This document shows positions 702 to 61,939 of a stretch of 64,000 nucleotides of DNA, piece after piece. The notes under the pieces are model-generated. The model saw nothing but the letters and a program-made list of their open reading frames with translations, had not been told where the DNA came from and did no database searches. The position numbers and the translations under genes were made by a program. This DNA is from Candidatus Latescibacterota bacterium (GTDB lineage: Bacteria > Latescibacterota > UBA2968 > GCA-2709665), in the NCBI GenBank assembly GCA_965219455.1, contig OZ244744.1, positions 1,376,001 to 1,440,000 of the forward strand, read 5' to 3'. Numbering within the stretch: the first letter of the stretch is position 1; each line of letters begins with the position of its first letter.

Positions 702-707
702 TATCGT

Positions 708-823
708 GAGGGCCGCATCCTGTCTCACGGCACAAAAGCGCCGAGGGACAAACGGGGTGTGCGCCTTTCTGGATGACCGTCGGTTTTCGACTCTGGCCGG
801 TCAGGGGACCGACGGTCTTTTCT
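708..823 (+). ncRNA. Putative sRNA, family 1, copy A (antisense to region upstream of the AraC regulator)
   Basis: Promoter directly upstream, long 5' stem-loop, terminator hairpin GACCGTCGG...CCGACGGTC + TTTT; homologous to 39332-39447 (-). Confidence 0.65.
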
Positions 824-1246
824 ATCTAATCGTGCTCGTCCGTGAATTACAAAGCCCATTAACGCGGCTTACGTTGCTCGTACTCCATAATGGAATTTAT
901 CCGACATACAACCGATCCACAGTTGCACCCGCGATAGGTCGTTTGGCGTCGGTTTTAGTCGCCAGCAATTACCCGCCAGTGCCACGGTTCGCTGCCGGTC
1001 GATTACACTGGAGAAATGCTCTTCCAAGTGACTGAAGTTACGGGCCTCTTCAAGTAGGCCCTGGATTCCTGAAGCATCCTGGCCTATATTTACCATAAGA
1101 AGATAATAAATTATTTATGACAAACACGTGACAATAAGCCCATATTTTATGATATTATTGTGATATTGCCCAATGCGGCATGATTGATCGGTTCCGGTCG
1201 GCCCGATGTCTCCTGGCCGTCCGTCTTAGCCGATGGAGGAGAGAAC

Positions 1247-3664: not shown

Positions 3665-3717
3665 ACAGCGATTGCGCTCGACTTCGCGCCCGGACCCCGC
3701 ATTGGCGCCAACACACA

Positions 3718-12881: not shown

Positions 12882-12922
12882 CTCCCCCTTTCCTTTAGGA
12901 GAGGGGGCCGGGGGGAGAGGTC
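12882..12922 (-). repeat. 41-bp dispersed REP-like repeat
   Basis: Reverse complement identical to 27527-27567 (GACCTCTCCCCCCGGCCCCCTCTCCTAAAGGAAAGGGGGAG). Confidence 0.75.
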
Positions 12923-13045
12923 ACGGCGCTGATGTCAACTGATTGGGTTTTTGGTTCAAGCTGACGGCTGAGTTCTGATAGCTGTTTTTCTGCTTCTGAT
13001 CGGCCGAATTCAGGCAACCTATTTCTGGGAAAGAACACCAGCACA

Positions 13046-23528: not shown

Positions 23529-23580
23529 CCCTCGTGGTTGCCCGGCCTTCCGTGGCTACGGCTCTCCCGTTCGGTAACAT

Positions 23581-23614
23581 AAAAAACTCACCTTGAAACA
23601 AAAGGTGAGTTTTT
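23581..23614. terminator. Intrinsic terminator downstream of rpmB
   Basis: AAAAAACTCACCTT-loop-AAGGTGAGTTTTT. Confidence 0.75.
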
Positions 23615-23697
23615 CCGGGATGGATTCCGCTGCCGACATTTCCCCGAACTCATGCCGGGGGATCCGCCAGCGGACATCTGACGACCTTCTGCAGACC

Positions 23698-27384: not shown

Positions 27385-27745
27385 GCAGTCAGCGCCGGGA
27401 CCTCTCCCCCCGGCCCCCTCGGACAGAGCTATCAGCCGTAAGCTGTCAGCAAAAAACGAAAAGCAAAAGGCAGATTGCCAATACGGTCTGGCGATGCCAA
27501 TCCACAACCGCAGCAGTCAGCGCGGGGACCTCTCCCCCCGGCCCCCTCTCCTAAAGGAAAGGGGGAGGAACACCGGCAAGGCGGGCGACCACAAGGGTCG
27601 CCCCTACGAATTCAAACGCCGGTTATGTCAAGATTCGGCTCACACGGAGACACTAAGACACAAAGAAAAAACAGTCAGCATTCAGGAAAGGCCGGTACAC
27701 ACGCAAATCCAAACAGCGGGCATTTCGACAAGCTCAATGAACGCA
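27385..27745. repeat. Intergenic mosaic of REP-like motifs
   Basis: 36-bp direct repeat (27385/27514), 41-bp repeat shared with 12882, GTAG-REP 27583-27607, TTCGACAAGCTCA shared with ~10775-10787. Confidence 0.65.
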
Positions 27746-37600: not shown

Positions 37601-38550
37601 CTTAACAGCCCGTTGAAAAAGTCCATCCGGGCTGCGTCCGGCTCTTGTGGCCGAATTACTGCGTTGCACTCCCTCCCCGAATCCCCCGATTCGACGCGGT
37701 CGTGCGTCTTGTCTTCGGCCACAATAACTCGGCCTCGCCTGCAGAGCGACTTTATCAACGGACTGTTAAGGGTGTCTGCCTCCGATGGGGAGGCGACGTC
37801 CTATAGCAACACCGTGCTATCCCCCGACACGGTGGCCAGAGTGCCGCCGTCTTGCGAAAACGACAGCGAAGTGACATCATCAGCAAGCCCTTCGAGCGTG
37901 CCGGCCTGCGTTCGCGTGCTCACGTCCCAAAGCAACACGGTGCCATCCTCCGATGCGGTGGCCAGCGTGCCGCCATCCGGCGAAAACACGACCGAATTGA
38001 CATTATCCGAATGACCTTCGAGGGTGGCCGTCTGTGATCTCGACGCCGCGTCCCACAACTGCACCGCGCCATCCTCCGACGCGGCCGCCAGCATGTCCCC
38101 CTCCGGCGAAAACACCACCGAAGTGACTCTACCCGCTGATACATCGAGAGTGGCTGCCTCTGATCGCGTTACCACGTCCCACAGTAATACCGTGCCGTCC
38201 TCTGAAACCGTGGCCAGCGTACCCCCATCCGGCGAAAACGACACCGAATTGACCCGGCCCGAACTCGGCAAAAGCGCCAGGGTACGGGCCGTGGCCCCGT
38301 CGTACAGCCACACGCCGATGCCGCTGGCCACGGCCAGCGTCCGCCCGTCAGACGAAAGAGCCACCGCCCGGTTTCCCGATCCGATAGCTCCCTTTCCCAG
38401 GCGCGCAGTCGCGCCGTCGGGCAGATGCCACGTCGGGGGGGCCTCTTCCAACACGCCCACGCCGGCGCCAGACACTGAAATGCCGCAAAACAGCGCGATG
38501 AGCGCCAGCATCGACACCGCCGTTTTCTTGTCGAAGATTTCGTTCGCCAT
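34649..38550 (-). pseudogene. Secreted WD40-repeat protein with C-terminal dockerin/EF-hand-like motif, disrupted by amber stop (37801-37803) and MITE
   Basis: ORFs 37801..38637 and 34649..37669 join in frame (TVLL*DVASPSEADTLKGDTGSLTLVAFSPD) after removing the MITE; >20 WD repeats; PDFNDDGSVGFADF...YDLDENGAIGFGDF. Confidence 0.85.
37606..37765. mobile_element. 160-bp MITE with TTAA target duplication
   Basis: TIRs CAGCCCGTTGAAAAAGTC / CAGTCCGTTGATAAAGTC (16/18); TTAA at 37602-37605 and 37766-37769; excision restores frame. Confidence 0.9.
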
Positions 38551-38785
38551 GCCGCACTCCTTTACTGTTGCCATCCTGGAAGACACCTCCACATCCATCG
38601 ACCGCTTTGGGAAATTGTAGTCAGATGGCGGTGTCATGCGCAGCGCTGAATATGTATCAAACCTGCCAGCGTCGCAATAATATACGCGAAATATCAGTAA
38701 GATTGCGGTCTTTTTTCGTAGAATACGCTGGCGTTTTGCATTTGGAATCCTGAGCGCGTGGTGTCATTTGCCGAACGATAGGGGC

Positions 38786-38814
38786 TTGACACGCAATCGG
38801 AAATCGGATAACAT
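38786..38814 (+). promoter_or_regulatory. Sigma70-type promoter of family-2 RNA copy 2
   Basis: TTGACA-17-TAACAT. Confidence 0.65.
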
Positions 38815-38820
38815 AAATTG

Positions 38821-38900
38821 AAACAGGACGCGGGCCTCTGTCGCGTACTCCGCTTGCAAAACCCTCCCGGCCGGCGGAAATACGGATAGAGGCCCGAATT
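38821..38900 (+). ncRNA. Putative hairpin sRNA, family 2, copy 2
   Basis: Two substitutions versus copy 1 over the CAGGACG...CCCGAAT core. Confidence 0.5.
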
Positions 38901-39164
38901 ACGTGTTAACGCAGGGAACCCTGCGCTCACATCAAGCTCTCAAATCCGCAACGCGGTCGCCCGGCTTGCGGCGGATGTTCTTCACGGTGGAGCGTAACGG
39001 ACGCCGAAACCGCCCTATACCGGGCAGGCACCTCACATCCAGGTCACTTCAAGGACAATCGGCGGGCGTATCCTTGCCCCATGATCGAACAATGCCGAGG
39101 CAGGCTTCGCGGAACACTCACCGCACTCAGCAACGGTAAAATCCATCCAGGATTGTGCCGAACT

Positions 39165-39265
39165 TGAAAACTTGCGCCAAGTTTGTAAATTAATCCGTAA
39201 AAAGTAGATAAATATGTAAATTTTAAATAGTTGAATATTGTTTGACTAATGGTTATATTATGGTT
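39165..39265. promoter_or_regulatory. AT-rich divergent promoter region
   Basis: AT-rich island; TTGAAT (39231)-17-TATATT (39254) on + strand. Confidence 0.5.
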
Positions 39266-39331
39266 GAAGCATCTCGCAAGCCGAACGAAACAGTTCTGTA
39301 ACGCAGCGTTCCAGGCCTAGCCCGGCCGCAT

Positions 39332-39447
39332 GCAAAAACCGTCGGTTTCCCTGACCTGCCAGAGTCGAAAACCGACGGTTATCCAGGAAGGCGCGCAACC
39401 CTTTTGTCCCCTGGCACTATTGCGCCGTGAGACGGAATGCGGCCCTC
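39332..39447 (-). ncRNA. Putative sRNA, family 1, copy B (antisense to leader of surface-protein gene)
   Basis: Homologous to 708-823; terminator AACCGTCGG...CCGACGGTT + TTT. Confidence 0.65.
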
Positions 39448-39454
39448 ATTTTGA

Positions 39455-39483
39455 AATATAGAGAACCTGTCTCGTTTTGTCAA
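39455..39483 (-). promoter_or_regulatory. Sigma70-type promoter of sRNA copy B
   Basis: TTGACA (39483-39478), 17-bp spacer, TATATT (39460-39455). Confidence 0.75.
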
Positions 39484-39639
39484 ATGCCGCGATCCGGAAT
39501 CGAGCGCGTCGAGACGCGAACCGGATTATCGAATTCCTCGTCGCACCTGGCCGCGACGACGTCTTACCGCGGCGCCGGAACATCGTTGGCCTGTTGCGAG
39601 TTGGTCAAGACTGCCAATCGGAAGGGAAGGAAGGACATC

Positions 39640-42600
39640 ATGTCCAGGTTTTTCGTTGTACCAATCCTGCTCACGTTTGTCGTCTTGACCAACGCCGAAG
39701 CGCAGCAGACGCCCATCCTTCTGGTGTCCAACATCGATAAAACCCGGAATACCGGTCCCGGCTCCCGCCTTGTCGCAGGCGAATCGATGGTCGCAATCGG
39801 TTTTGGTACCGGCGACGACAATGGCGGCTACGCGCTTACCGGGCTCGACGTCAAATTCCATCAGGACCAGGGGACCGGGGAAGAAGTCCGGATCGAGCTC
39901 TGGTCGTCCGGTTATCCGAGGAGCAACGGGAATCGACCCTACGAAAAGCTCGTGGTCTTTGACAATCCGGACCGCATCACCGAAGGCGACAACGCGTTTA
40001 CACTGCCACAGCCTTTTTATCTGAACGACGGTTGGACCTATTTCATCGTCGGCAGAGCACCCGAATACAGACCCGGCGACGAGAGCACGCAGTGGTGGTT
40101 CGCCACCACGGACTCGGACGCACAGAGCGACCGCATCGATAACGACTGGTGGATCGGAGACAACACGTTCCGATACGCCGGTTCAGGGGCCTGGCCGGAC
40201 CGCGTTACCACGCTCAGCAGAGTCCCGATGATCGCGATCAAAGGCTACGAGCTCGACCGTCTGGTCTACAACACCGGCGAGAGCACGGACGGATACCACG
40301 TCGTGGGAGGCAACTGGCTGGCGCAGGTCTTCACCACGGGCCACGACAACGAAGGCTACGACCTGCACAGCATCGCCTTGGCGTTGGAAGAGGATTCGGG
40401 CCGGGGTCTTCCCACCGACGGCGATCACCTGACCGCGTCTCTGTACACGACCAGAACGGCCGGCTCCGAACGGCATCCGGACCGCAAGCTGTTCGACTTC
40501 GTGAGTCCCCCCGTATTCAGGGAAGGCATAGACAACGAGTTCGTCGCGCCGCAAGGATCGACGCTCGAGCGGGACACGCGATACGCCTTCGTCCTGCGCC
40601 GGAGTACCGGCGCGTGGGCCTACGTCCGGCGCACCCGCGGCGACGACGAGGACGGCCAGGACGAATGGTGGATCAGAAACGAGGTCTACAAATCCACGGA
40701 CGGCGCGGCGTGGAACCCGGATACCCGGGCGCTGAAGATGAGGCTCTACGGCAAGAGGCGCTCCGAAGAGATACCAGGGCAGGTCCTCGATATCGGCGCC
40801 GACCGCACGGAGCGCGAGGGGAGCAATTTCGACGTCCCGGTGACGTTGTCGGAAACGAGCGCGCAGGCAGTGTCCGTCTCCTTCCGGGGCACGGGAGGAA
40901 CCGCCGCCGGGAGCGACTACAGTCATCATGGACAGCCGATGGTAACGATCGAGGCCGGACAGACGACGGCATGGATCAACTTCGACGTCACCAACGACGA
41001 TGCACAGGAGGACGAGGAGTACTTTTTTCTGGAGCTCCACAGCCCGACCCATGCGGTCATCGGGCGCGCCCGGGCACGGATCACCATACCCGCGAACGAC
41101 GAACCGCCGGACGACGCCGGCGCCCCGTTCGGAACGCCGGCGAATCTGACGGCGACGTTGGGTAACGCGGCGGCAACGCTGAGCTGGCGCGCGCCGGCGG
41201 CAACGGCCGACGTCAGGCGCCACGAGTACCGCTACAGGACGGGGGGGAGCTATCCCTCAACGTGGACGCCGATTGAAGACAGTGCGCCCGGCGGCGCCAA
41301 CGCGGCGGGCGTGACGGTGACGGGGCTGCGCGCAGGCGTGGCGTATACCTTCCAGGTAAGGGCCGTGAGCACGGGGGGGGAAACGAGCGACGCGGCGACG
41401 GCGGCAACCCTGCCCGTCTGCAGCCGCACCTCCAGGGTGCGCAACGCGATTCTCGCCAGGCTGCCCGGGATCAATAACTGCGCTGACGTCACCGCCTACA
41501 ACCTCCGGAACATCGATGGCGAGATGAATCTCCACGGCAGGGGCATCACGTCCCTCAAGGCCGGGGACTTCTCCGGGTTGAACGGGCTGGAATTCCTGAC
41601 GCTGTCCGGGAACAGACTGAGCACGCTCCCGGCCGGCGTGTTCGACGGCCTTTCCGCCGTGCGCGAGCTTTCCCTGCAGACCAACGACCTGAGTTCCCTG
41701 CCCGACGGCGCCTTCAGAGGCCTCACCGGGCCGCTGTGGATCAAGCTGTCCGGGAACGAATTCACCGCGTTTCCAGGTGAGGCGCTGGACGACCTGGGCT
41801 CCAACCTTACGGGCCTGTACCTGGGGTTCAACGACCTCAGCTCACTGCCGAACGACGCCTTCGAAGATTTCAAGCGGCTGAGGACCATCGACCTGGAGAA
41901 CAACGACCTGACCTCGCTGCCCGACGGCATCTTCGACGACGTCGGCACCCTGGAATACCTGTACCTCGGCAGCAACGACCTGACGTCCCTGCCCGGCGGC
42001 GTCTTCGACGACCTCCGCGGCCTCCTGCATCTGTATCTCACGAACAACGAGCTGACCGCCGTGCTCGTTGGCGCGTTCGACCGTCTCGCCGCTCTGCAAG
42101 ACCTGGACCTGGGCGACAACGACCTTACGTCCCTGCCCGACGGCGTCTTCGACGGTACGCGGGACCTGAAGAGGTTGAACCTGAAAGGCAACAAGCTGAC
42201 CGCCCTTCCCGAGGGTGCGTTCGAGGGCCTCTCGAAGCTGACCCGGGTGCATCTGGACGGCGTCACCCTGATCCCCGGGCTGCTGCTGGAGGGCGGGGGC
42301 GTCGCGGTGAGGGTCGCGGAAGGCGCGCCCTTTCCCATGAACGTGACGCTGTCGGCGGAGGGCGCCAATCTGGCAAGTACGGCGGCAACCATCCCGGCCG
42401 GCGCCACGACCAGCGGGGCGATCGCCGTGACGCTGCGCGGCGGCAGGTCGGCGCGGGGCACGATCACCGTGGCGTCAGCCACCTTCCAACGCGACCCGGA
42501 CGACTACGAGGGCCTCGACATCCGCACCGGCGCCGGCCTGATCCTCACGCGGGGATCGGAGGGACTGCAAGGGGAGGCGGTTCCCGCGCCGGAACCCCCG

Positions 42601-43707
42601 CCGGACCCCGACGAGGAGGGGACTGCGCCGACCATCCTGTCGATCGCCTTCACCAGCGACCCGGGGCGGGACAACGCCTACGCCTCCGGCAACCTGATCG
42701 ACGTGACGGTGACCTTCAGCGAGCAGGTGCGGGTGACCGGAAGGCCGCAGCTGGAGCTGGACTTCGACGGCGTGGCCAAAGTGGCGACGTACCGCGGCGG
42801 AACGGCCACAACGGCGATCTTCAGCTACAGCGTGAGAGCGGCCGACGTGGACGTCGACGGCATCGCCATCGGCGCGAACAAGCTGAGCCTGGACCGCGCC
42901 TCCATCTGGGACATGGGCGTGCCCGGGAACAGGGCCAACGTGACCCACGACGCGGTGCCCCCCGACCCCGGCCACAAGGTGAACCCTCCGGACGTGACGG
43001 CGCCGGTCTTCGTGAGCGCCGCGACCTCCGATGACGGGACCCGGGTCGTCCTCACCTTCAGCGAAAGGATCACCGTACCGGCGCTGCTGCGCTCGATCGT
43101 CCGAATCGTCCGAGTCGGCCTCGCCCGGTTCTTCATAGCGGTGATTGGCGTGACAGTGGACGGCGATGAGGTGATCCCCTTCACCGCCGGCATTTCCCGG
43201 ACCAACCTCATCATGACCTTGCGTGAGCCCGTGACCCGGGGGCAGGAGGTCGCCGTGGCCTACGACAACATCTTCGCCCGCGACGCCGTCGGCATTTTCA
43301 TCGACGAAGCGGGCAACGCCCTGCAGAACTTCCCGTCCCGACCGGTCACGAACCGGTCCACGGTGGCCGACTCCGAGGAGGAGGACACCACCCCGGATCT
43401 GAAACTGAGCCGGACGGAACTTCCGGTCACCGAGGGGGAGAACGCCGCCTACTCCGTGGCCCTGGGTAGCCAGCCCACGGCCTCGGTGACCGTTGCGATC
43501 GCGAGCTCTTCGAGCAAACTGTCGGTCAGTCCCGGAAATCTCGCGTTCACCACGGAAAACTGGAACGACGCCCAGACGGTAACGCTCACCGCGGGCCAGG
43601 ACGACGACAACCTGAACTACTGGGTACGCGTGAGTCATACGGCCGGCGGAGGGGGCTACGACTCGGCCGCGGCGAACGTGTACGTGGTCATTCAGGATGA
43701 CGACTGA
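39640..43707 (+). CDS. Large secreted protein: two N-terminal beta domains, Calx-beta, FN3, ~9 LRRs, SwmB-like and Ig-like domains
   Basis: Signal peptide AEA-Q, EDEEYFFLEL Calx-beta, YTFQVRAV FN3, LxxLxLxxNxLxxLP repeats. Confidence 0.85.
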   Translation: MSRFFVVPILLTFVVLTNAEAQQTPILLVSNIDKTRNTGPGSRLVAGESMVAIGFGTGDDNGGYALTGLDVKFHQDQGTGEEVRIELWSSGYPRSNGNRPYEKLVVFDNPDRITEGDNAFTLPQPFYLNDGWTYFIVGRAPEYRPGDESTQWWFATTDSDAQSDRIDNDWWIGDNTFRYAGSGAWPDRVTTLSRVPMIAIKGYELDRLVYNTGESTDGYHVVGGNWLAQVFTTGHDNEGYDLHSIALALEEDSGRGLPTDGDHLTASLYTTRTAGSERHPDRKLFDFVSPPVFREGIDNEFVAPQGSTLERDTRYAFVLRRSTGAWAYVRRTRGDDEDGQDEWWIRNEVYKSTDGAAWNPDTRALKMRLYGKRRSEEIPGQVLDIGADRTEREGSNFDVPVTLSETSAQAVSVSFRGTGGTAAGSDYSHHGQPMVTIEAGQTTAWINFDVTNDDAQEDEEYFFLELHSPTHAVIGRARARITIPANDEPPDDAGAPFGTPANLTATLGNAAATLSWRAPAATADVRRHEYRYRTGGSYPSTWTPIEDSAPGGANAAGVTVTGLRAGVAYTFQVRAVSTGGETSDAATAATLPVCSRTSRVRNAILARLPGINNCADVTAYNLRNIDGEMNLHGRGITSLKAGDFSGLNGLEFLTLSGNRLSTLPAGVFDGLSAVRELSLQTNDLSSLPDGAFRGLTGPLWIKLSGNEFTAFPGEALDDLGSNLTGLYLGFNDLSSLPNDAFEDFKRLRTIDLENNDLTSLPDGIFDDVGTLEYLYLGSNDLTSLPGGVFDDLRGLLHLYLTNNELTAVLVGAFDRLAALQDLDLGDNDLTSLPDGVFDGTRDLKRLNLKGNKLTALPEGAFEGLSKLTRVHLDGVTLIPGLLLEGGGVAVRVAEGAPFPMNVTLSAEGANLASTAATIPAGATTSGAIAVTLRGGRSARGTITVASATFQRDPDDYEGLDIRTGAGLILTRGSEGLQGEAVPAPEPPPDPDEEGTAPTILSIAFTSDPGRDNAYASGNLIDVTVTFSEQVRVTGRPQLELDFDGVAKVATYRGGTATTAIFSYSVRAADVDVDGIAIGANKLSLDRASIWDMGVPGNRANVTHDAVPPDPGHKVNPPDVTAPVFVSAATSDDGTRVVLTFSERITVPALLRSIVRIVRVGLARFFIAVIGVTVDGDEVIPFTAGISRTNLIMTLREPVTRGQEVAVAYDNIFARDAVGIFIDEAGNALQNFPSRPVTNRSTVADSEEEDTTPDLKLSRTELPVTEGENAAYSVALGSQPTASVTVAIASSSSKLSVSPGNLAFTTENWNDAQTVTLTAGQDDDNLNYWVRVSHTAGGGGYDSAAANVYVVIQDDD

Positions 43708-48830: not shown

Positions 48831-51800
48831 ATGCATTTGAAATCGACCCACCACCGGCCGGCCGGGCAACCGCTCCCGGCACAAATGCCCCCCCGATTTT
48901 TTCGGGGCCGCAACGGAGCCGCGGCGATGACTCGCGGCATCAGACCGGTCCGGCTGCCCCGGGTTTCTGCCCTCGTTGCGGTCGCCCGGGTGTCCGCCGC
49001 GGTGTTGTTCGTGCTCTTCGCCGCCCTTCCCGCCACGGCGCAACCTTCCGCACCGCAGGGCTTCGCGGCGTCGAACGGCAACGCGCAGGTGAAGCTCACC
49101 TGGGACGCGCCGGCGGAGGACGCGGACATCGCGCGCCACGAGTACCGGTTCAAGACCACCGGCGACTACCCCGCCGCGTGGACGGCAATCGAGGAAAGCG
49201 CGCCGGGCGGGCTCCACGAGGACTGGGTCGTGGTGACGGGCCTGACCAACGACGTGGCCTACACGTTCCAGTTGCGCACGGTGAACGCGGGCGGCGACGT
49301 CAGCACCGCGGCGGATGCGGGTCCGGCGACGCCGAGGTCCGGCGTCTGCGGCCGCACCGAGCAGGTGCGGGACGCGATCGTGGCTGCGATCGCCGGCGTG
49401 TCGGACTGCGCCGACGTGACGACGGCGGAATTGGCCGATGTGACTGTGCTGGATCTCAGGAGGACGGGCTTCAAGTCTCTGCAGCCGGGCGACTTCTCCG
49501 GCATGGCGGCGCTGACGACGCTCGATCTTGGTGGTTTCAACTATCTCAGTTCGCTTCCCGACGGCGTGTTCTCCGACCTGACGGCGCTGGAGTGGCTCGA
49601 TCTTGGTTCCAACGAGCTCACCTCGCTTCCCGCCGGCGTGTTCTCCGGCCTGACCGCGCTGGAGCAGCTCCTTATCAGCAACAACGAGCTCACCTCGCTT
49701 CCCGCCGGCGTGTTCTCCGGCCTGACGGCGCTGACGAGGCTGGAACTGCACAACAACGGTAGACCCGCTGCCGCTGACCGTGACGCTGGAGAGGAACCCG
49801 GATGCCGTCGAGATCCGCGCGGTGGTGCTGACCGCGGCGCCGTTCGCGGTGCCGCTGAGCGTGAGCGTGGAGAACGGCGGCCTCGCGGGCGGGGCGGCCA
49901 CGATCACGGTCCCGACCGGTGCACGGGAGAGCGCGTGGGTCGGCGTGACCCGCACGGCCGGCACGACCGGGGCGGTGACCGCGGACATCGACCTGACCAC
50001 CCAGCCGAGCCTGCCCACCAACAACGGCGGCTACGCCTTCGTCAAGTCCGCGAGCGACCTGCCGCTGACGGTCGAGCCCGCGACCGATCCGGTCTGGTCC
50101 ACGACCATGACGGCGGGTGACACTCCGGCGGGGCACGGCTACGACAGGACCGACCTCGACGCGCCCACGATCGGGGCGCTCGACGACGACAATTTCGATT
50201 ACGGGTCCTCTTCCTATGGGGTCCTTGCCCTCGACGTGGCGACGAATGTCGTCAGATTCGTCGTCGCCGAGTCCGGACTTCCGACGAATGAAATCCTGAC
50301 GCTGGAGCTCGGCGGGCACGCGCTCGCATTCTCGGATCGACACAACGTTATCAGCGGCCAAAGCCGATGGTATTGGACCGTTCCGGCCGCACTGGACGAT
50401 CTGGAGACCGAGTTTCCGGTCGGGAGCACGGCGACGGTGTGCCTGCGCACGGCGACGCAGGTGTGTCCGACGGGGAGCATCGTGACGCCCACGAACGCGG
50501 CGCCGGCGTTCAGCTCTTCGGCGACGTTCGACGCGGCGGAGAACCAGACGGCGGCCGGCACGGTGCTGGCGACGGACGGCGACACGGACGACGACGTCAC
50601 CGGCTACGCGATCACCGGCGGGGCGGATGAGGCGCTGTTCGAGATCGGGATGACGGACGGCGCCCTGACGTTCAAGACGGCGCCGAACTTCGAGGACGCC
50701 AAAGACCAGGGCACGAACAACACCTACGTGGTCGAGGTTACGGCGACCAGCGGCATGGGCACGCGGGAGAAGACGGCGACGCAGACGATCACGGTGACGG
50801 TCACGGACGTGAGCGGCGAGAAGCCGGCCGCGCCGGCCGCGCCGACGGTGGCGGCGGCCTCGGTGACCAGCCTGACGGTGAACTGGTCGGCGCCGTCCAA
50901 CGCGGGCCCGGCGATTACGGACTACGATTACCGCCACCGGACGACCTCGCCGCAGGGCACGTGGACGGAGGTGACCGGCACGGCGATCACGGGCACCGCG
51001 GCGACGATCGCGGGTCTGGCGGAGAACACGTCCTACGACGTGCAGGTGCGGGCGACCAACGACGAGGGCACCGGCGACTGGTCGGACGCGGGAACCGGCA
51101 CGACGGACGCCAACGCGGCGCCGGCGTTCAGCTCTTCGGCGACGTTCGACGCGGCGGAGAACCAGACCTCGGCGGGCACGGTGGTGGCGACCGACAGCGA
51201 TGCGGGCGACGACATCACGGGCTACGCGATCACCGGCGGGGCGGACCAGGCGCTGTTCGAGATCGGGATGACGGACGGCGCCCTGACGTTCAAGACGGCG
51301 CCGAACTACGAGGACGCCAAAGACCAGGGCACGAACAACACCTACGTGGTGACGGTCGAGGCGACCAGCGGCATGGGCGAGCGGGAGAAGACGGCGACGC
51401 AGACGATCACGGTGACGGTCACCGACGCGGCCGGGGAGGCGCCGGGCAAGCCGGACGCGCCGGACGTGGCGGCGGCCTCGGTGACCAGCCTGACGGTGAA
51501 CTGGTCGGCGCCGGCCAACGCCGGTCCGGCCATCACCGACTACGACGTGCAGTACCGGGAGGGCACGAGCGGCAGCTGGACGGACGGCGGCCACACCGGC
51601 ACCGCCACCACGGCGACGCTGTCGAGTCTGTCGGAGAACACGTCCTATCAGGTACAGGTGCGGGCCACCAACGACGAGGGCACCGGCTCGTGGTCGGACT
51701 CGGGCAGCGGCACGACGGACGCCAACGCGGCGCCGACGTTCACGTCTTCGGCGACGTTCGACGCGGCGGAGAACCAGACGGCAGCCGGCACGGTGAGGGC

Positions 51801-54800
51801 GACCGACGGCGACTCGGAGGACGACGTCACCGGCTACGCGATCACCGGCGGGGCGGATGAGGCGCTGTTCGAGATCGGGATGACGGACGGCGCCCTGACG
51901 TTCAAGACGGCGCCGAACTTCGAGGACGCCAAAGACCAGGGCACGAACAACACCTACGTGGTCGAGGTTACGGCGACCAGCGGCATGGGCGAGCGGGAGA
52001 AGACGGCGATGCAGACGATCACGGTGACGGTCACGGACGTGAGCGGCGAGAAGCCGGCCGCGCCGGCCGCGCCAACGGTGGCGGCCGCGTCGGTGACGAG
52101 CCTGACGGTGACGTGGACGAAGCCGGCCAACGCCGGTCCGGCCATCACCGACTACGACGTGCAGTACCGGGAGGGCACGAGCGGCAGCTGGACGGACGGC
52201 AACCACACCGGCGCCGACCTCACGGCGACGCTGTCGGGCCTGTCGGAGAACACGTCCTACCAGGTACAGGTGCGGGCGACCAACGACGAGGGTACGGGCT
52301 TGTGGTCGGCCTCGGGCACCGGCGCGACGGACGCCAACGCGGCGCCGTCGTTCAGCTCTTCGGCGACGTTCGACGCGGCGGAGAACCAGACCTCGGCGGG
52401 CACGGTGCTGGCGACGGACGGCGATTCGGATGATGACATCACGGGCTACGCGATCACCGGCGGGGCGGATGAGGCGCTGTTCGAGATCGGGATGACGGAC
52501 GGTGCCCTGACGTTCAAGACGGCGCCGAACTTCGAGGACGCCGAGGACCAGGGGACCGACAACACCTACGTCGTGACGGTGCAGGCGACGAGCGGCACGG
52601 GTGAGCGGGTGAAGACCGCCACGCAGACGATCACGGTGACGGTGACGGACGTGACCACGGAGGCGCCGGGCAAGCCGGACGCGCCGACGGTGTCGGCCGC
52701 CTCGGTGACGAGCCTGACGGTGACGTGGACGGCACCGGCCAACGCCGGTCCGGCCATCACCGACTACGACGTGCAGTACCGGGAGGGCACCACCGGCAAC
52801 TGGACGGACGGCAACCACAACGGCACCGCCACCACGGCGACGCTTTCGAGTCTGTCGGAGGGCACGTCGTACCAGGTGCAGGTGCGGGCGACCAACGACG
52901 AGGGCACGGGCGACTGGTCGGACTCGGGCAGCGGCACGACGGACGCCAACGCGTCGCCGACGTTCAGCTCGTCGGCGACGTTCGACGCGGCGGAGAACCA
53001 GACGGCGGCCGGCACAGTGCTGGCGACCGACGGCGACACGGACGACGACATCACCGGCTACGCGATCACCGGCGGGGCGGACCAGGCGTTCTTCTCGATC
53101 GTGCCGGCGACGGGCGCGCTGACCTTCAAGACGGCGCCGAACTTCGAGGACGCCAAAGACCAGGGCACGAACAACACCTACGTGGTCGAGGTGACGGCGA
53201 CCAGCGGCATGGGCGAGCGGGAGAAGACGGCGACGCAGACGATCACGGTGACGGTGACGGACGTGGCCGGCGAAGCGCCGGGCAAGCCGAATGCACCGGA
53301 CGTGGAGGCCGCGTCGGTGACGAGCCTGACGGTGACGTGGTCGGCGCCGGCCAACGCCGGCCCGGCAATCACCGACTACGACTATCGCTACCGGACGACC
53401 TCGCCGCAGGGCACGTGGACGGAGGTGACCGGCACGGCGATCACGGGGCTGTCGGCGACGATCGGGAGCCTGTCGGAGAACACGTCCTACGACGTGCAGG
53501 TGCGGGCGACCAACGCCGAGGGCACCGGCGACTGGTCGGACTCGGGAACCGGCGCGACGGACGCCAACGCGGCACCGTCGTTCACCTCGAATGCGGCGTT
53601 CGACGCGGCGGAGAACCAGACGGCGGCCGGCACGGTGGTGGCGACGGACAGCGATTCGGATGATGACATCACGGGCTACGCGATCACCGGCGGGGCGGAC
53701 CAGGCGTTCTTCTCGATCGTGCCGGCGACGGGCGCGCTGACCTTCAAGACGGCGCCGAACTTCGAGGACGCCAAAGACCAGGGCACGAACAACACCTACG
53801 TGGTCGAGGTGACGGCGACCAGCGGCGCGGGGACACGGGAGAAGACGGCGACGCAGACGATCACGGTGACGGTGACGGACGTGAACACCGAGGCGCCGGG
53901 CAAGCCGGCAGCGCCGACGGTGTCGGCGGCGGCGGCGACGAGCCTGAGCGTGAACTGGGCGGCGCCCGACAACGCGGGTCCGGCGATCACGGACTACGAC
54001 GTGCAGTACCGGGCAGGCACCAGCGGGGGCTGGAGCGATGGCAACCACAACGGCACGGCCACCACGGCGACGATCGGGAGCCTGTCGGAGAACACCTCCT
54101 ACCAGGTGCAGGTGCGGGCCAAGAACGCCGAGGGTACCGGCGACTGGTCGGCCTCGGGCAGCGGCACGACCGACGCCAACGCGGCGCCGTCGTTCAGCTC
54201 GTCGGCGACGTTCAGCGCGGCGGAGAACCAGACCACGGCGGGCACGGTGCGGGCGACGGACTCCGATGCGGATGACAGCATCACCGGCTACGCGATCACC
54301 GGCGGGGCGGACCAGGGTCGCTTCTCCATCGGGGCAACGTCGGGGGCGCTGACGTTCAACGATGCGCCCAACTTCGAGGCACCTTCGGACGCCAACACCG
54401 ACAACGACTACGTGGTGACCGTGCAGGCGACGAGCGGCACGGGGACGCGGGTAAAGACGGCGACGCAGACGATCACGGTGACGGTGACGGACGTGAACAC
54501 CGAGGCGCCGGGCAAGCCGGCAGCGCCGACGGTGGCGCCGGCGTCGGTGACGAGCCTGAGCGTGAACTGGGTGGCGCCGTCCAACGCCGGCCCGGCCATC
54601 ACCGACTACGACGTGCAGTACCGGGCGGGTACCAGCGGGGACTGGAGCGACGCGGGCCACAACGGCACCGCGGTCACGGCGACGATCGGGGGCCTGTCGG
54701 AGAACACCTCCTACCAGGTGCAGGTGCGGGCCAAGAACGCCGAGGGCACCGGCGACTGGTCGGACGCGGGCACCGGCGCGACGGGGCTAGCGCCGACCAA

Positions 54801-55440
54801 CAACCAGCCCAGCGAGATCAAGGCCTACTGGACCGATTCCGACACTAAAGGCAGCAACGTTCAGGAGGAATGCGACGGCACCGAGCCTTTCCGCGCCTTC
54901 TGGAATCCGCCGAAAAGCAACGGCAGCTTCAAGGTAGCCGACGAGTGGGAGGCTGAGATTACGCCCAAGAGCGGCGCCAGCAACGTGAGCTTCACCATAC
55001 AGAACACCGGCGGCAACCGTAGGGAACCCGAGCTGACCGGGACCGTCGAGATCGACGGCTTCAGCACGTTGAGCATGCGGGTCCGCGGGCGTTTCGGCGA
55101 CGACGGATGGGGCGCGTGGTCGCCGATAACAGGGTTGTTTTGCAGGACCTCGGCGTCCAAGAAGCCGCCGGGGCTCGCGCCGAATGCGCCCAACCCTTTC
55201 AACCCCAGCACCGTCATCTCCTATCGCCTGGACGTGGAAGGGCCGGTGCGCCTGGAGATCTACAACCTCCTCGGGCAGCGCATACGCGCACTGGTGGACG
55301 AGGTGCAGGCAGCCGGCGCCTACCAGGTGCAATGGGACGCCCGCGACGCGGCGGCGCGGCGCGTGTCATCGGGGGTGTATTTCATCCGCCTGCGCTATCC
55401 GGGCGGGGTGCAGACCCGGCGCATGCTCTACCTCGAGTAG
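48831..55440 (+). pseudogene. Giant FN3-LRR-(cadherin-FN3)x7-CTD surface protein, frameshifted near 49758
   Basis: ORFs 48831..50120 and 49780..55440 are collinear with paralog 55644; CAC AAC AAC G GTA GAC vs paralog GAA AAC ACC GTA GAC implies a 2-nt loss. Confidence 0.8.
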
Positions 55441-56216
55441 ACCCGGCATGGAGAACGCCGCCGCCCGCATCCTCTCGGCCGGAATCGAGCCGGCGGGCGG
55501 TCCTCAACCGGCCTTCATGATAGTAATGGAGAAGTTGCCATGCATTTGAAATCGACCGACCACCGGCCGGAACGGGCAATCGCCCCGGCACAAATGTTCA
55601 CCCCCCCCCCGGATTTTTTCGGGGCCGCGCCTGAGCGGCGGCCATGACTCGTGGCATCAGACCGGTCCGGCTGCCCCGGGTTTCTGCCCTCGTTGCGGTC
55701 GCCCGGGTGGTCGCCGCCGCGGTGCTGCTCGTGCTCTCCGCCGCCCTTCCCGCCACGGCGCTGCCCCCCAGGCCGACGGGTTTCGCCGTGTCGAACGGCA
55801 ACGGGCAGGTGACGCTCACCTGGGACGCGCCGGCGGAGGACGCGGATATCTGGCACCACGAGTACCGCTTCAAGACCACGGGCGACTACAACGACTGGAA
55901 GAAGATCGACGACAGCGAGGTGGGCAAGAGCCACGAGGACTGGGTCGTGGTGACGGGCCTGACCAACGACGTGGCCTACACGTTCCAGTTGCGCATAGTG
56001 AACAGAGACGGCAACGGCAACGAGGTGACGGCCAGTCAGGCGACGCCGACGGACGGCTTCTGCGGCCGCACCGAGCAGGTGCGGCTCGAGATCATGAGGC
56101 AGATCTCCGGCGTGTCGGACTGCGCCGTCGTCACGTCGGCGCAACTGGCCGGCGTGATGTCTCTGGATTTCGCCTCTGTTGTCATCAAGTCCCTGCAGCC
56201 GGGCGACTTCTCGGGC

Positions 56217-56972
56217 CTGACCGCGCTGACGGATCTCACTCTGAGCGGCAACGAGCTCAGTTTGCTTCCCGCCGGCGCGTTCTCCGGCCTGACCGCGCTG
56301 ACGGATCTCACTCTGAGCGACAACGAGCTCAGTTCGCTTCCCGCCGGCGCGTTCTCGGGCCTGACCGCGCTGACGGATCTCACTCTGAGCGACAACGAGC
56401 TCAGTTCGCTTCCCGTCGGCGCGTTCTCCGGCCTGACCGCGCTGAAAACGCTCAATCTGGACCGCAACGAGCTCCGTTCGCTTCCCGCCGGCGTGTTCTC
56501 CGGCCTGACCGCGCTGACGAATCTCGCTCTGGTCAGCAACGAGCTCCGTTCGCTTCCCGCTGGCGTGTTCTCCGACCTGACCGCGCTGACGGATCTCTCT
56601 CTCTTCCGCAACGAGCTCACCTCGCTTCCCGCTGGCGTGTTTTCCGACCTGACCGCGCTGACGACTCTCCGTCTGGAATCCAACGAGCTCAGTTCGCTTC
56701 CCGCCGGCGTGTTCTCCGACCTGACCGCGCTGACGTCGCTCCGTCTGCGTTACAACAAGCTCAGTTCGCTTCCCGCCGGTGTGTTCTCCCGCCTGACCGC
56801 GCTGACGACTCTCCGTCTGGGTTACAACGAGTTCACCTCGCTTCCCGCCGGTGTGTTCTCCCGCCTGACCGCGCTGACGAATCTCTCTCTGTTCGGCAAC
56901 AAGCTCAGTTCGCTTCCCGCCGGCGTGTTCTCCGACCTGACCGCGCTGACGGATCTCTATCTGCGCGAAAAC
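56217..56972 (+). repeat. Tandem 72-bp LRR-encoding repeats (10 full + 1 partial)
   Basis: CTGACCGCGCTG...CTTCCCGCCGGCGTGTTCTCC recurring every 72 bp. Confidence 0.95.
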
Positions 56973-59900
56973 ACCGTAGACCCGCTGCCGCTGACCGTGA
57001 CGCTGGAGAGGAACCCGGATGCCGTCGAGATCCGCGCGGTGGTGCTGACCGCGGCGCCGTTCGCGGTTCCGCTGGTCGTGAGCGTGGCGAACGGCAGCCT
57101 CGCGGGCGGGGCGGCCACGATCACGGTTCCGACCGGTGCGCGGGAGAGCGCGTGGGTCGGCGTGACCCGCACGGACGGCACGGCCGGGGCGGTGACCGCG
57201 GACATCGACCTGACCCCCCAGCCGATCCTGCCCGACAAACACGATGGCTATGAGTTCGTCAAGTCCGCGAGCGACCTGCCGCTGACGGTGCTGGACGTGC
57301 CGGGCGCGCCGGCTGCGCCGTCGGTGTCGGCCGCGTCGTCCTCCAGCCTGACGGTCATGTGGTCGGCGCCGGACGACGGGGGCTCGGCGATCACGGACTA
57401 CGACGTGCAATACCGGGCAGGCACCAGCGGCGACTGGACGGACGGGAACCACGCCGGCACGGCCACCACGGCGACGCTCACGGGCCTTTCGGCGAGCACG
57501 TCCTATCAGGTGCAGGTGCGGGCGACCAACGCCGACGGCGCCGGCTCGTGGTCGGACTCGGGCAGCGGCAGGACGGAGGACGCCAACGCGGCCCCGACGT
57601 TCAGCTCACCGGCGACGTTTGACGCGGCGGAGAACCAGACCTCGGCGGGCGAGGTGGTGGCGACCGACAGCGATGCGGACGACGACATCACGGGCTACGC
57701 GATCACCGGCGGCGCGGACCAGAGTTTCTTCTCGATCGGGGCGACGTCCGGGGATCTGACGTTCGACGCGGCACCGAACTACGAGGACGCGCAGGACCAG
57801 GGCACCAACAACACCTACGTGGTCGAGGTGCAGGCGACCAGCGGCGCGGGCGAGCGGGAGAAGACGGCGACGCAGACGATCACGGTGACGGTGACGGACG
57901 TGAACACGGAGGCGCCGGGCAAGCCGGGCGCGCCGACGGTGACGACCGCGTCGGTGTCGAGACTGAGGGTGAACTGGTCGGCGCCGGCCAACGCGGGCCC
58001 GGCGATCACCGACTACGACTACCGCTACCGGGCGGGCAACAGCGGGGGCTGGACGGACGGCGGCCACGCCGGCACGGCGGTCACGGCGACGCTGACGGGC
58101 CTTTCGGAGGACACGTCGTACCAGGTGCAGGTGCGGGCCACGAACGCCGAGGGCACCGGCGCCTGGTCGGCCTCGGGCAGCGGCAGGACGGACGCCAACG
58201 CGGCACCGGCGTTCACATCGGATGCAGAGTTCGACGCAGCGGAGAACCAGACCACGGCGGGCACGATGCGGGCGACCGACTCCGATGCGGATGACGACGT
58301 CACGGGCTACGCGATCACGGGCGGGGCGGACCAGGGGTTCTTCTCCATCGGGGCGACGTCCGGGGCACTTACGTTCAACGATGCGCCCAACTTCGAGGAC
58401 GCGCAGGACCAGGGCAGCAACAACACCTACGTGGTGGAGGTTACGGCGACCAGCGGCGAGGGCGAGCGGGAGAAGACGGCGACGCAGACGATCACGGTGA
58501 CGGTGACGGACGTGAGCGGCGAGGCGCCGGGCAAGCCGGGCGCGCCGATGGTGGCGCCGGCGTCGGTGTCGAGCCTTTCGGTGAACTGGTCGGCGCCGTC
58601 CAACGCGGGTCCGGCGATCACCGACTACGACGTGCAGTACCGGGCGGGCACCAGCGGGGGCTGGAGCGACGGCACCCACAGCGGCACCGCGGTCACGACG
58701 ACGCTGACGGGCCTTTCGGAGAACACCTCCTACCAGGTGCAGGTGCGGGCCACCAACGCCGAGGGCACCGGCGACTGGTCGGAGTCGGGCAGCGGCGTGA
58801 CGGACGCCAACGCGGCGCCGTCGTTCAGCTCACCGGCGACGTTCGACGCGGCGGAGAACCAGACGGCGGCGGGCACGGTAGAGGCGACGGACTCCGACGC
58901 GGGCGACGACGTCACGGGCTACGCGATCACCGGCGGGGCGGACCAGGCGTTCTTCTCCATCGGGACGATGACGGACGGCGCCCTGACGTTCAACGATGCG
59001 CCCAACTTCGAGGACGCGCAGGACCAGGGCAGCAACAACACCTACGTGGTGGAGGTTACGGCGACCAGCGGCATGGGCGAGCGGGAGAAGACGGCGACGC
59101 AGACGATCACGGTGACGGTGACGGACGTGAACACCGAGGCGCCGGGCAAGCCGAATGCGCCGACGGTGTCGCCGGCGTCGGTGTCGAGCCTTTCGGTGAA
59201 CTGGTCGGCGCCGTCCAACGCGGGTCCGGCCATCACCGACTACGACGTGCAGTACCGGGCAGGCACCAGCGGGGCCTGGAGCGACGGCACCCACAACGGC
59301 ACCGCCATCACGGCGACGCTGACGGGCCTGTCGGAGAACACCTCCTACCAGGTGCAGGTGCGGGCCACGAACGACGAGGGCACGGGCTCGTGGTCGGAGT
59401 CGGGCTCGGGCCGCACGGACGCCAACGCGGCGCCGTCGTTCAGCTCCGCGGCGACGTTTAGCGCGGCGGAGAACCAGACGGCGGCCGGCACGGTGCTGGC
59501 GACGGACAGCGATGGGGATGACGACGTCACGGGCTACGCGATCACCGGCGGCGCGGACCAGGCGTTCTTCTCCATCGTGCCGGCGTCCGGGGCGCTGACG
59601 TTCAAGACGGCGCCGAACTTCGAGGACGCCAAAGACCAGGGGACCAACAACACCTACGTGGTGACGGTTCAGGCGACGAGCGGCATGGGGGAGCGGGTCA
59701 AGACGGCGACGCAGACGATCACGGTGACGGTGACGGACGTGAACACCGAGGCGCCGGGCAAGCCGGGCGCGCCGATGGTGGCGCCGGCGTCGGTGTCGAG
59801 ACTGACGGTGAACTGGTCGGTGCCGGCCAACGCGGGTCCGGCCATCACCGACTACGACGTGCAGTACCGGGAGGGCACGGGCGGCAGCTGGACGGACGGC

Positions 59901-61939
59901 AACCACACCGGCGCCGCCACCACGGCGACGATCGGGAGCCTGTCGGAGAACACGTCCTACGACGTGCAGGTGCGGGCGACCAACGCCGAGGGCACCGGCG
60001 CGTGGTCGGACGCGGGCACCGGCGCGACGGACGCCAACGCGGCCCCGTCGTTCAGCTCCGCGGCGACGTTCAGCGCGGCGGAGAACCAGACCACGGTGGG
60101 CACGGTGGTGGCGGCGGACTCCGATGCGGATGACAGCATCACCGGCTACGCGCTCAGTGGCGGGGCGGACCGGGATTTCTTCTCGATCGTGGCGGCGTCG
60201 GGGGCACTTACGTTCCAGTCGGCGCCGAACTTCGAGGACGCCAAGGACCTTGTGAGTGTCGATCCGGCCAATGCCGCCGGCAACAACCAGTACGTGGTGG
60301 AGGTTACGGCAACCAGCGGCATGGGGGAGCGGGAGAAGACGGCGACGCAGACGATCATGGTGAGAGTGACCGACTTGGACACCGAGGCCCCGGGCAAGCC
60401 GGGCGCGCCGACGGTGTCGGCGGCGTCGGTGTCGAGCCTGACGGTGACGTGGACGGCGCCGTCCAACGCGGGTCCGGCGATCACCGACTACGACTACCGC
60501 CACCGGACGACCTCGCCGGAGGGCACCTGGACGGAGGTGACCGGCACGACGATTACGGGGCTGTCGGCGACGATCGGGAGCCTGGAAGAGAACACGTCCT
60601 ACGACGTGCAGGTGCGGGCCAAGAACGACGAGGGCGCCGGCGACTGGTCGGACGCGGGCACCGGCGCGACGGACGCCAACGCGGCGCCGATGTTCAGCTC
60701 GGATGCGACGTTCATCGCGGCGGAGAACCAGACCACGGCGGGCACGGTGCTGGCGACCGACTCCGATGCGGATGACGACGTCACGGGCTACGCGATCACG
60801 GGCGGGGCGGACCAGGGGTTCTTCTCCATCGGGGCGACGTCCGGGGCGCTGACGTTCAACGATGCGCCCAACTTCGAGGACGCCAAGGACCAGGGCACCA
60901 ACAACACCTACGTGGTGGAGGTTACGGCGACCAGCGGCATGGGCGAGCGGGAGAAGACGGCGACGCAGACGATCACGGTGACGGTGACGGACGTGAGCGG
61001 CGAGGCGCCGGGCAAGCCGGGCGCGCCGATGGTGGCGCCGGCGTCGGTGTCGAGACTGACGGTGAACTGGTCGGTGCCGGCCAACGCGGGTCCGGCGATC
61101 ACCGACTACGACGTGCAGTACCGGGCGGGCACCAGCGGGGCCTGGAGCGACGGCACCCACAACGGCACCGCGGTCACGACGACGCTGACGGGCCTTTCGG
61201 AGAACACCTCCTACCAGGTGCAGGTGCGGGCCACCAACGCCGAGGGCACCGGCGACTGGTCGGAGTCGGGCAGCGGCGTGACGGACGCCAACGCGGCGCC
61301 GTCGTTCAGCTCACCGGCGACGTTCGACGCGGCGGAGAACCAGACGGCGGCCGGCACGGTGCTGGCGACGGACAGCGATGGGGATGACGACGTCACGGGC
61401 TACGCGATCACCGGCGGCGCGGACCAGGCGTTCTTCTCCATCGTGCCGGCGTCCGGGGCGCTGACGTTCAAGACGGCGCCGAACTTCGAGGACGCCAAAG
61501 ACCAGGGGACCAACAACACCTACGTGGTGACGGTTCAGGCGACGAGCGGCATGGGGGAGCGGGTCAAGACGGCGACGCAGACGATCACGGTGACGGTGAC
61601 GGACGTGAACACCGAGGCGCCGGGCAAGCCGGCAGCGCCGACGGTGTCGCCGGCGTCGGTGACGAGCCTGACGGTGACGTGGACGGCGCCGTCCAACGCG
61701 GGTCCGGCCATCACCGACTACGACGTGCAGTACCGGGCAGGCACCAGCGGGGCCTGGAGCGACGGCACCCACAACGGCACCGCCATCACGGCGACGCTGA
61801 CGGGCCTGTCGGAGAACACCTCCTACCAGGTGCAGGTGCGGGCCACGAACGACGAGGGCACGGGCTCGTGGTCGGAGTCGGGCTCGGGCCGCACGGACGC
61901 CAACGCGGCGCCGTCGTTCAGCTCCGCGGCGACGTTTAG

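Follow-up and report, generated by a model that had tools for sequence, protein, structure and literature searches.

A candidate small RNA gene family of Latescibacterota and the apparent duplication of one copy in front of a surface-protein gene cluster

What might be the function of a conserved non-coding element that lies in front of a cluster of giant surface-protein genes, and how did it get there? The question is raised by a region within a stretch of 64,000 nucleotides (nt) from Candidatus Latescibacterota bacterium (contig OZ244744.1, positions 1,376,001 to 1,440,000, forward strand), which was analyzed as a whole and is called the window throughout. The region, 39256-39483, is located between a gene for a WD40-repeat protein (37801-38637, minus strand) and the first surface-protein gene (39640-43707, plus strand), and the surface-protein cluster runs on with giant genes of the fn3, leucine-rich repeat (LRR), and cadherin types to 61946. 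The initial annotation had interpreted the region as the second copy (copy B) of a small RNA (sRNA) gene that is also found near the beginning of the window (copy A). Sequence comparisons indicate that the sRNA gene is real, intact, and conserved, and that it belongs to an uncatalogued family. With a probability of roughly 0.6, we think that it is an independent gene for an sRNA of about 115-120 nt, that it works in cis on the leader of the gene in sense orientation, as an antisense and transcription-interference element, and that it has been duplicated, together with the start of a regulator gene, to its position before the adhesin gene.

Promoter, terminator, and fold of the candidate sRNA gene

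Whole-window repeat finding revealed that copies A and B form an inverted repeat of 100 nt with an identity of 87% (707-806 versus 39349-39448), and the same search returned a second repeat pair of 67 nt with an identity of 81% on the promoter side (612-678 versus 39478-39544). A gapped local alignment merges both pairs into one block, which comprises 612-820 at copy A and 39544-39334 at copy B. The exact 19-nt core of the terminator was used for a genome scan, which returned six loci. Three of them (L001, L002, and L005) have only 19-22 nt in common with the element and were dropped as chance matches, about four of which are expected for a 19-mer in the collection according to our own arithmetic. 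The full element is present at the other three loci, i.e., in two Latescibacterota chromosomes of 5.45 and 5.60 Mb that are metagenome-assembled genomes (MAGs; loci L003 and L004), and in a MAG labelled as Gemmatimonadota (L006). The five full members, including copies A and B, were used to build a covariance model, R1. The parts of the gene are as follows:

39478-39483, minus strand: −35 box TTGACA of copy B, invariant in all five full members and part of a promoter match at 11 of 12 positions
39455-39460, minus strand: −10 box TATATT of copy B, behind a 17-nt spacer; TATATT in four of the five members and TAAATT in one (L003)
39328-39448, minus strand: sRNA body of copy B, in which the single-stranded linker (CCUGGAUAA) connects a long 5' hairpin to a terminator hairpin with U-run; 129.4 bits with R1
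39337-39380, minus strand: terminator hairpin of copy B with perfect outer arms of 12 bp and an inner extension
673-826, plus strand: sRNA copy A with promoter at 673-701 (11 of 12 positions) and body at 707-826; 130.5 bits with R1, 86-87% identical to copy B

The predicted promoter, TTGACA-17-TATATT, is a near-consensus match to the sigma-70 type (39483 to 39455 on the minus strand for copy B, 673 to 701 on the plus strand for copy A). A promoter scan yielded five sites per region, compared to 0.8 ± 1.0 in shuffled sequences for copy B and 0.7 for copy A, and the sRNA promoter ranked at the top. It is also the best promoter-like match at each of the five loci with a full member, all of which carry TTGACA, a spacer of 17 nt, and TATATT or TAAATT. 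The hexamers are invariant or nearly so, and the mean identity of the spacer among the five members is 47.6%. The conserved body of copy B opens with UGAGGGCCGCAU at 39448. Both copies finish in a long hairpin and a subsequent T-run on the sRNA strand; the arms of the terminator of copy B are 39380-39369 and 39348-39337, and UUUUU is found at 39338-39334. At least four T follow directly in three of the five full members, in L004 they follow after one base, and in L003 the run reads TTTCTTT.

The initial annotation had proposed that both copies have the same promoter, body, and terminator, and that the element is a self-contained sRNA gene, which for copy B is encoded on the minus strand. The present results bear this out, because the element has its own conserved promoter that matches the consensus, an intrinsic terminator on the same strand, and no conserved reading frame. 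The limits of the element had to be revised, however. The sRNA element of copy B extends from 39328 to 39483 on the minus strand, instead of 39256 to 39483, and the duplicated module, which has a length of about 210 bp, extends from 39334 to 39544. Small open reading frames (ORFs) in the sRNA sense, e.g., 39258-39398 and 622-1035, were rejected because indels between the members break the frames. A sigma-54-like TGGCAC in copy B (39411-39416) was also discarded, as its spacing to the following TTGC is wrong and it is missing in copy A. In copy B only, an 8-nt stretch beyond the terminator (39324-39331, AUGCGGCC in the sRNA sense) is complementary to the 5' end of the sRNA (39437-39444, GGCCGCAU), and a read-through transcript of copy B could therefore close on itself.

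The predicted folding energies differ considerably between the two strands. The sRNA strand folds with −59.5 kcal/mol (z −6.1) for copy B and −60.9 kcal/mol (z −5.9) for copy A, compared to −45.9 kcal/mol (z −3.7) and −46.8 kcal/mol (z −3.2), respectively, for the opposite strand. The consensus fold of the five members has −53.6 kcal/mol in the sRNA sense versus −37.4 kcal/mol in the opposite sense. Among the predicted pairs, seven are formed by G and U (in either order) in four or more of the five members, and six of these in all five. On the opposite strand the G-U pairs would become A-C mismatches, and thus the conserved pairing speaks for the sRNA strand. Likewise, a T-run 3' of the hairpin exists on the sRNA strand only. 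An alignment of seven members, which includes two diverged paralogs that are described below, contains nine pairs that have changed on both sides, compared to 3.5 ± 1.5 in shuffled alignments (1 of 500 reached this number), but the alignment was fitted to the model and thus leans towards it. Taken together, energy and strand asymmetry support the modelled fold of the sRNA well, and covariation supports it only tentatively.

These results also bear on the possibility that the functional RNA is encoded on the opposite strand, where it would form a structured leader at the 5' end of the mRNA for the regulator or the adhesin, and that the sRNA promoter is incidental. The opposite strand also folds better than shuffled sequences, as the z values given above illustrate, and the mRNA of the regulator gene next to copy A probably includes the sequence. 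However, the consensus fold is weaker by 16 kcal/mol on that strand, the conserved G-U pairs are lost, and the promoter hexamers and the U-run are conserved in the sRNA sense only. An eight-codon frame on the opposite strand was also rejected, because it lacks coding-type conservation and is broken in L003. Therefore, we regard an origin of function on the opposite strand as extremely unlikely.

Conservation and relation to known RNA families

The pairwise identities of the body range from 85.0 to 89.3% among the five full members, and copies A and B, with 85.8%, are no closer to one another than members from different genomes. The regulator gene adjacent to copy A and its ortholog at L006 have a DNA identity of 66.8%, an identity at third codon positions of 54.7%, and a protein identity of 56%. 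The identity of the body is thus far above that of the promoter spacer and of the regulator gene, which argues that constraint on the sRNA element is much stronger than on the neighbouring sequence. The other four members have 89 invariant columns in common, of which copy B retains 85. Its changes are found in variable columns (Fisher p 0.0016), and it resembles the rest of the family in this respect.

The five full members reach scores of 126-130 bits with R1. The model also retrieved two diverged paralogs, L006 2690-2786 (48.7 bits) and L004 7677-7794 (22.3 bits), both of which are less than 4 kb away from the respective main copy (1.2 kb in L006 and 3.7 kb in L004). A scan of the 64-kb window with R1 and the filters off revealed no further member with an E value below about 0.1; a weak match at 23575-23679 (14.7 bits) looks like an ordinary terminator and not like a family member. 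The family therefore comprises at least seven members in four genomes. The L006 paralog (2610-2786, plus strand) has its own promoter, TTGACG-18-TAAAAT, and an additional inserted hairpin, and is without a U-run. The L004 paralog is located on the minus strand, and both paralogs keep the linker UCCUGGA.

Each arm of the terminator is itself near-palindromic (AACCGTCGGTT at 39337-39347 and AACCGACGGTT at 39370-39380). The initial annotation had pointed out these palindromes and had considered a DNA operator as an alternative; the palindromes exist, but the operator is not favoured. According to this explanation, the near-palindromes AACCG(T/A)CGGTT, which are 33 bp apart from start to start, i.e., about three helical turns, are bound by a dimeric regulator, for example one of the adjacent two-component proteins, and this could coexist with a role of the RNA. 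Each arm is palindromic about its centre (by our calculation, the probability of this is about 1 in 256 for a single arm), all five full members have identical arms, and regulator genes flank three of the five loci. However, an operator would need neither the 5' hairpin nor the promoter hexamers nor the 20 nt that separate the arms, and all of these are conserved to the same degree. The L004 paralog keeps the pairing between the arms via a change from C-G to U-A and loses the palindromes within the arms. In addition, the window contains nine matches to the motif with up to one mismatch, versus 4.1 ± 1.9 expected, but three of the nine are in the sRNA copies, and elsewhere the number is at chance level. 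A function as operator is therefore quite unlikely.

A search of both strands of the 64,000 bases against Rfam 15 yielded no match at the gathering score. Below it, copy B is matched from end to end by atoC (RF01733) with 19.3 bits (E 0.3-0.9), compared to a gathering score of 50. The atoC RNA motif has been listed as a candidate cis-regulatory RNA of delta-proteobacteria (PMC2864571). It resembles the sRNA element in being short, in having a terminator-like hairpin at its end, and in being located near response-regulator genes, but the organisms belong to a different phylum. Membership in the atoC family was rejected, because the match of copy B is far below the threshold and rests mainly on the terminator hairpin; no match was obtained for copy A (E up to 10) or for L003, L004, and L006. 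The weak resemblance would suggest that the element is a cis-regulatory leader, e.g., an attenuator or riboswitch-like, for a downstream gene on the same strand. A co-directional gene indeed exists at three of the five loci, namely a hybrid kinase gene that starts at 1184 for copy A, a gene for a sigma-54 activator in L006, and the WD40 gene for copy B. However, these genes are about 360-690 nt away and unrelated to one another, and the other two loci are without a co-directional gene (L003 has a convergent LRR gene, L004 none). Together with the low atoC score of a single member, this makes a cis-regulatory leader very unlikely. The plasmid and phage collections contained no match to the sRNA element, and a literature search on small RNAs in Latescibacteria retrieved no report on such RNAs, judging by titles and the beginnings of abstracts.

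The adjacent regulator gene and the origin of copy B

The side of the promoter opposite to the sRNA is instructive for both copies. The following features are found there:

2-679, minus strand: gene for a protein with response-regulator receiver and AraC-type helix-turn-helix domains, cut by the edge of the window; its ATG (679-677) overlaps the −35 box of copy A
39477-39544, plus strand: dead remnant of the N-terminus of a response-regulator/AraC protein, 81% identical to 612-678, within the ORF 39477-39740
39640-43707, plus strand: first surface-protein (adhesin) gene, with signal peptide and Calx-beta, fn3, and LRR domains

Read on the opposite strand, the final two bases of the −35 box of copy A and the base that follows them form the ATG of the regulator gene. 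The regulator ortholog in L006 has a GTG at the same place, and this is the sole start position that both intact regulators have in common. A database search identified 15 homologs of the regulator at E <= 1e-20 among 290 candidates, and 13 of these were aligned with the proteins of the window and of L006. The motif [M/V]-S-[I/N] is present at the start position in 11 of the 13 rows that reach it, the exceptions being P0008 (MPN) and P0001. P0001 is 91% identical to the regulator of the window, and all of its first 17 residues (17/17) agree with an alternative-frame reading across the sRNA promoter of copy A. Four further proteins (P0003, P0005, P0006, and P0007) have N-terminal extensions (MRPS... 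or MRLS...) that are collinear with the antisense translation of the sRNA promoter and 5' end, as read from the L004 sequence. The overlap of the −35 box with the start codon of the regulator explains these mis-called N-termini of database proteins, and from the protein sequences we infer that the head-to-head arrangement of sRNA and regulator exists in further genomes. The L006 ORF 3149-3943 has likewise been called too far upstream; its N-terminus (MSPGASVP...) is collinear with a translation antisense to the sRNA and is not real protein.

At copy B only a remnant of the regulator gene is left. The ORF 39477-39740 starts with a TTG that has two bases in common with the −35 box, namely the last two of the box, and it runs out of frame across the start of the adhesin gene. 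ATT is found in place of the ATG of the receiver domain, and the identity to the regulator at copy A amounts to 18 of 37 residues. The alignment of the promoter-side homology has a score of 60, whereas shuffled sequences reach 17.7 ± 2.6 and none of 500 reaches 60. The homology ends after the approximately 67 nt of the remnant; in the 48 aligned columns beyond, the identity drops to 44%, as in unrelated sequences. In the 64 nt beside the −35 box, copy B is 79.7% identical to copy A and 56-62% identical to L004 and L006. Copy B is therefore closest to copy A in this part, which argues for a duplication within this lineage. As judged from the sequence, copy B is a duplicated cassette of about 210 bp that comprises the sRNA and the first 22 or so codons of the regulator gene.

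The initial annotation had also assumed that a weaker similarity continues past the terminator (39257-39301 versus 890-846), and that a whole module of sense promoter, leader, and antisense RNA has been reused before unrelated genes. The similarity past the terminator could not be substantiated. An alignment of 823-960 with 39327-39190 has a score of 14, while shuffled sequences have 15.4 ± 2.1 and 423 of 500 reach 14, and across the five loci the stretch past the terminator cannot be aligned, with a mean column identity of 49%. That a module larger than the sRNA has been reused still holds, but its additional part is the beginning of the regulator gene rather than a sense promoter past the terminator.

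The duplication raises the question whether copy B is a mobile element of the miniature kind, or else a neutral duplication that is decaying and has no function. Two copies are present within 39 kb, the window contains a gene for a DDE transposase (61960-63570), and the identity of the sRNA between copies A and B (86%) is near that of the dead regulator stub (80%). However, no flanking direct repeats, target-site duplication, or terminal inverted repeats were found at the ends of the homology, 39334 and 39544. The copies are also not oriented at random, four of the five full copies being head-to-head with the start of a regulator gene or its remnant. Further arguments are the lack of matches in the plasmid and phage collections, the single occurrence of the 19-mer core in each of two complete chromosomes of about 5.5 Mb, and the retention of nearly all family-invariant columns (85/89), both promoter hexamers, and the full fold in copy B. 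Therefore, we give hardly any credence to a mobile or functionless copy B.

At three of the five loci the sRNA is intact without an intact partner regulator: only a stump is left in copy B and in L004, and the gene is absent in L003. The L004 stump, which is independent of that in copy B, has about 50 codons (25 of 45 residues identical) and is followed by about 940 nt of non-coding sequence, a gene for a signal-peptide protein, and an LRR/FG-GAP gene. In L003 a receiver-PAS-kinase gene is located about 530 nt beyond the promoter, and a convergent gene of the LRR/fn3/leishmanolysin-like type ends 44 nt from the 3' end of the sRNA. LRR surface-protein genes are found within about 1.1 kb of the sRNA at three of the five loci, albeit with different orientations. 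The survival of the sRNA at loci with a stump or without a regulator indicates that it probably has a regulator-independent role as well. L004 also contains, at 3100-3700 between a transketolase-like gene and the sRNA, several repeated units of about 140 nt with near-identical short ORFs (MIRR...HLH...).

Possible mode of action

On the minus strand, the near-consensus sigma-70 promoter of copy B is predicted to start transcription at about 39449. The resulting RNA would end near 39334 and would have a long hairpin at its 5' end, a large one with U-run at its 3' end, and a short open linker (UCCUGGAU) between them. The ancestral setting is presumably that of copy A and L006, where the sRNA and the 5' leader of a response-regulator/AraC gene are encoded on opposite strands of one stretch. 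Since the −35 box of the sRNA overlaps the start codon of the regulator, the promoter of the regulator gene must lie beyond, and its polymerases would have to traverse the sRNA gene and the sRNA promoter head-on. Likely effects would be polymerase collision or occlusion, plus pairing of the sRNA with the perfectly complementary leader. The ATG of the adhesin gene is separated by 156 nt from the −35 box of copy B, and the gene would inherit the same antisense control if it is transcribed from the AT-rich stretch at 39160-39260. The GC content is 0.28-0.29 across 39150-39299, and one of two promoter-like sites upstream of the adhesin gene with 9 of 12 matches is at 39164-39191. The other is:

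39231-39259, plus strand: candidate sense promoter TTGAAT-17-TATATT, 9 of 12 positions, in the AT-rich stretch, not conserved at other loci

If the latter is used, the adhesin mRNA would be antisense to the sRNA gene. The sRNA thus probably dampens whatever transcription passes through it.

Several points weigh against this interpretation. The sRNA promoter and terminator are predictions that have been derived from consensus and folding. When the five full members alone are regarded, three pairs have changed on both sides, which is not significant, as 75 of 500 shuffled alignments also reach three. The sRNA is not significantly better kept between copies A and B than the dead regulator stub (86 versus 80%). 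The candidates for a sense promoter reach only 9 of 12 positions and are not conserved between the loci. About 28 nt separate the start of the regulator gene from the 5' end of the sRNA upstream of it, so that pairing would miss the ribosome-binding site and its direct masking is unlikely. Lastly, the adhesin gene could equally be driven by a promoter within 39484-39639, and the sRNA would then be merely divergent; a scan of this stretch, which was confined to the sigma-70 consensus, found no promoter-like site.

A role in trans is plausible, and it is compatible with the antisense mechanism. Less probable, although a real possibility, is that the sRNA acts purely in trans, perhaps under the control of the neighbouring regulator. 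In this case the linker UCCUGGA(U/A), perhaps together with the preceding CCUUCC, would pair with distant mRNAs, and the position before the adhesin gene would be a by-product of the duplication. The linker core UCCUGGA is kept in all seven members, including the two diverged paralogs, and is predicted to be unpaired. The intact sRNAs at three of the five loci with a regulator stump or none, and the LRR surface-protein genes near three of the five, also fit this explanation. However, a scan of 29 start regions in the window yielded only generic pairing with purine-rich Shine-Dalgarno stretches or with doubtful starts. The two best scores, −26.7 and −26.3 kcal/mol, are below the first percentile of 3000 random windows, but one belongs to a Shine-Dalgarno stretch that is generic and rich in purines, and the other to a TTG that is doubtful as a start. 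The motif WTCCAGGA occurs eight times, compared to 3.1 expected, but one occurrence is the sRNA's own antisense strand and none is at a start site. As for a control by the regulator, a near-consensus promoter has no need of an activator.

A more far-reaching version of the antisense mechanism can be envisaged, but it is unlikely. The element would then be a portable antisense cassette, in which the −35 box also serves as start codon of the opposed gene, and the copying of about 210 bp imposes collision and antisense control on a new gene, in this case the first one of the giant LRR/fn3/cadherin cluster. The self-palindromic arms of the terminator could in addition be a DNA site for neighbouring regulators, so that the cassette would act at the levels of both DNA and RNA.

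Arrangements of sRNA genes and protein-coding genes that resemble the present one in part are known from other bacteria. The sRNA genes oxyS, gcvB, sgrS, and qrr1 are located head-to-head with the genes for the transcription regulators OxyR, GcvA, SgrR, and LuxO, respectively. These sRNAs depend on the adjacent activator and are not known to overlap its leader, whereas the new sRNA has a near-consensus sigma-70 promoter that overlaps the start codon of the regulator. As in the Qrr case, the new family has multiple paralogs with a conserved core. In the RNA-OUT/RNA-IN system of IS10, an outward antisense promoter at the start of the gene gives rise to a stable stem-loop RNA that is complementary to the 5' end of the sense RNA. 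RNA-OUT covers the start codon and is part of a transposon, while the new sRNA begins about 28 nt upstream of the start codon and has no transposon features. A third example is MtlS of Vibrio cholerae, which has been described as a cis-antisense sRNA to the 5' untranslated region of mtlA, with an efficacy that depends on the closeness of the two transcription sites and with levels that are set by transcription in the antisense direction (PMC4615234, PMC6597380). MtlS is encoded opposite the 5' leader of the gene that it controls, and judging by the geometry the same would hold for the new sRNA. The two have no sequence or family relation. In contrast to MtlS, the −35 box of the new sRNA overlaps the start codon of the target, the ribosome-binding site is left uncovered, and there are several paralogs, one copy of which has moved before a different gene. 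The sRNA is of an ordinary kind, i.e., an antisense or independent sRNA, but its arrangement is both unusual and neat, and it is found in a poorly known phylum.

Several additional features of the window were observed. A perfect inverted repeat of 12 nt (39600-39611 and 39682-39693, GTTGGTCAAGAC and GTCTTGACCAAC) brackets the ribosome-binding site and the ATG of the adhesin gene. The 111-nt stretch around this start is predicted to fold with the 12-nt stem closed (−36.7 kcal/mol, z −2.2) and may be a hairpin for translational control. Between the WD40 gene and the sRNA, 38786-39160 on the plus strand may encode another non-coding RNA. It starts with a promoter-like TTGACA-17-TAACAT (38786-38814, 10 of 12 positions), which is followed by about 340 nt of GC-rich sequence that contains no ORF of at least 80 aa (the longest has 78 aa) and has a fold z of −3.0. 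A 51-nt element rich in runs of G and C occurs at 12882-12932, 27389-27420, and 27517-27567, with identities of 96-97% and in inverted orientation, and could represent a different repeat family, either REP-like or another small RNA. Finally, 50381-54642 and 57472-62088 contain about 14-16 tandem copies of a 612-618-nt unit (about 204 aa). These units are located inside two giant fn3/cadherin/LRR genes (49780-55440 and 55644-61946), and the DDE transposase gene follows.

Knowledge on RNA regulators is almost absent for Latescibacterota and for the uncultured phyla in its neighbourhood. The sRNA described here is a clean and testable candidate, with a defined promoter, a defined product of about 120 nt, and the model R1. 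The copy before the adhesin cluster represents a natural experiment on the reuse of a regulatory cassette. If the copying of such a cassette indeed imposes control on a new gene, it would be a simple route to a larger regulon in an uncultured phylum.

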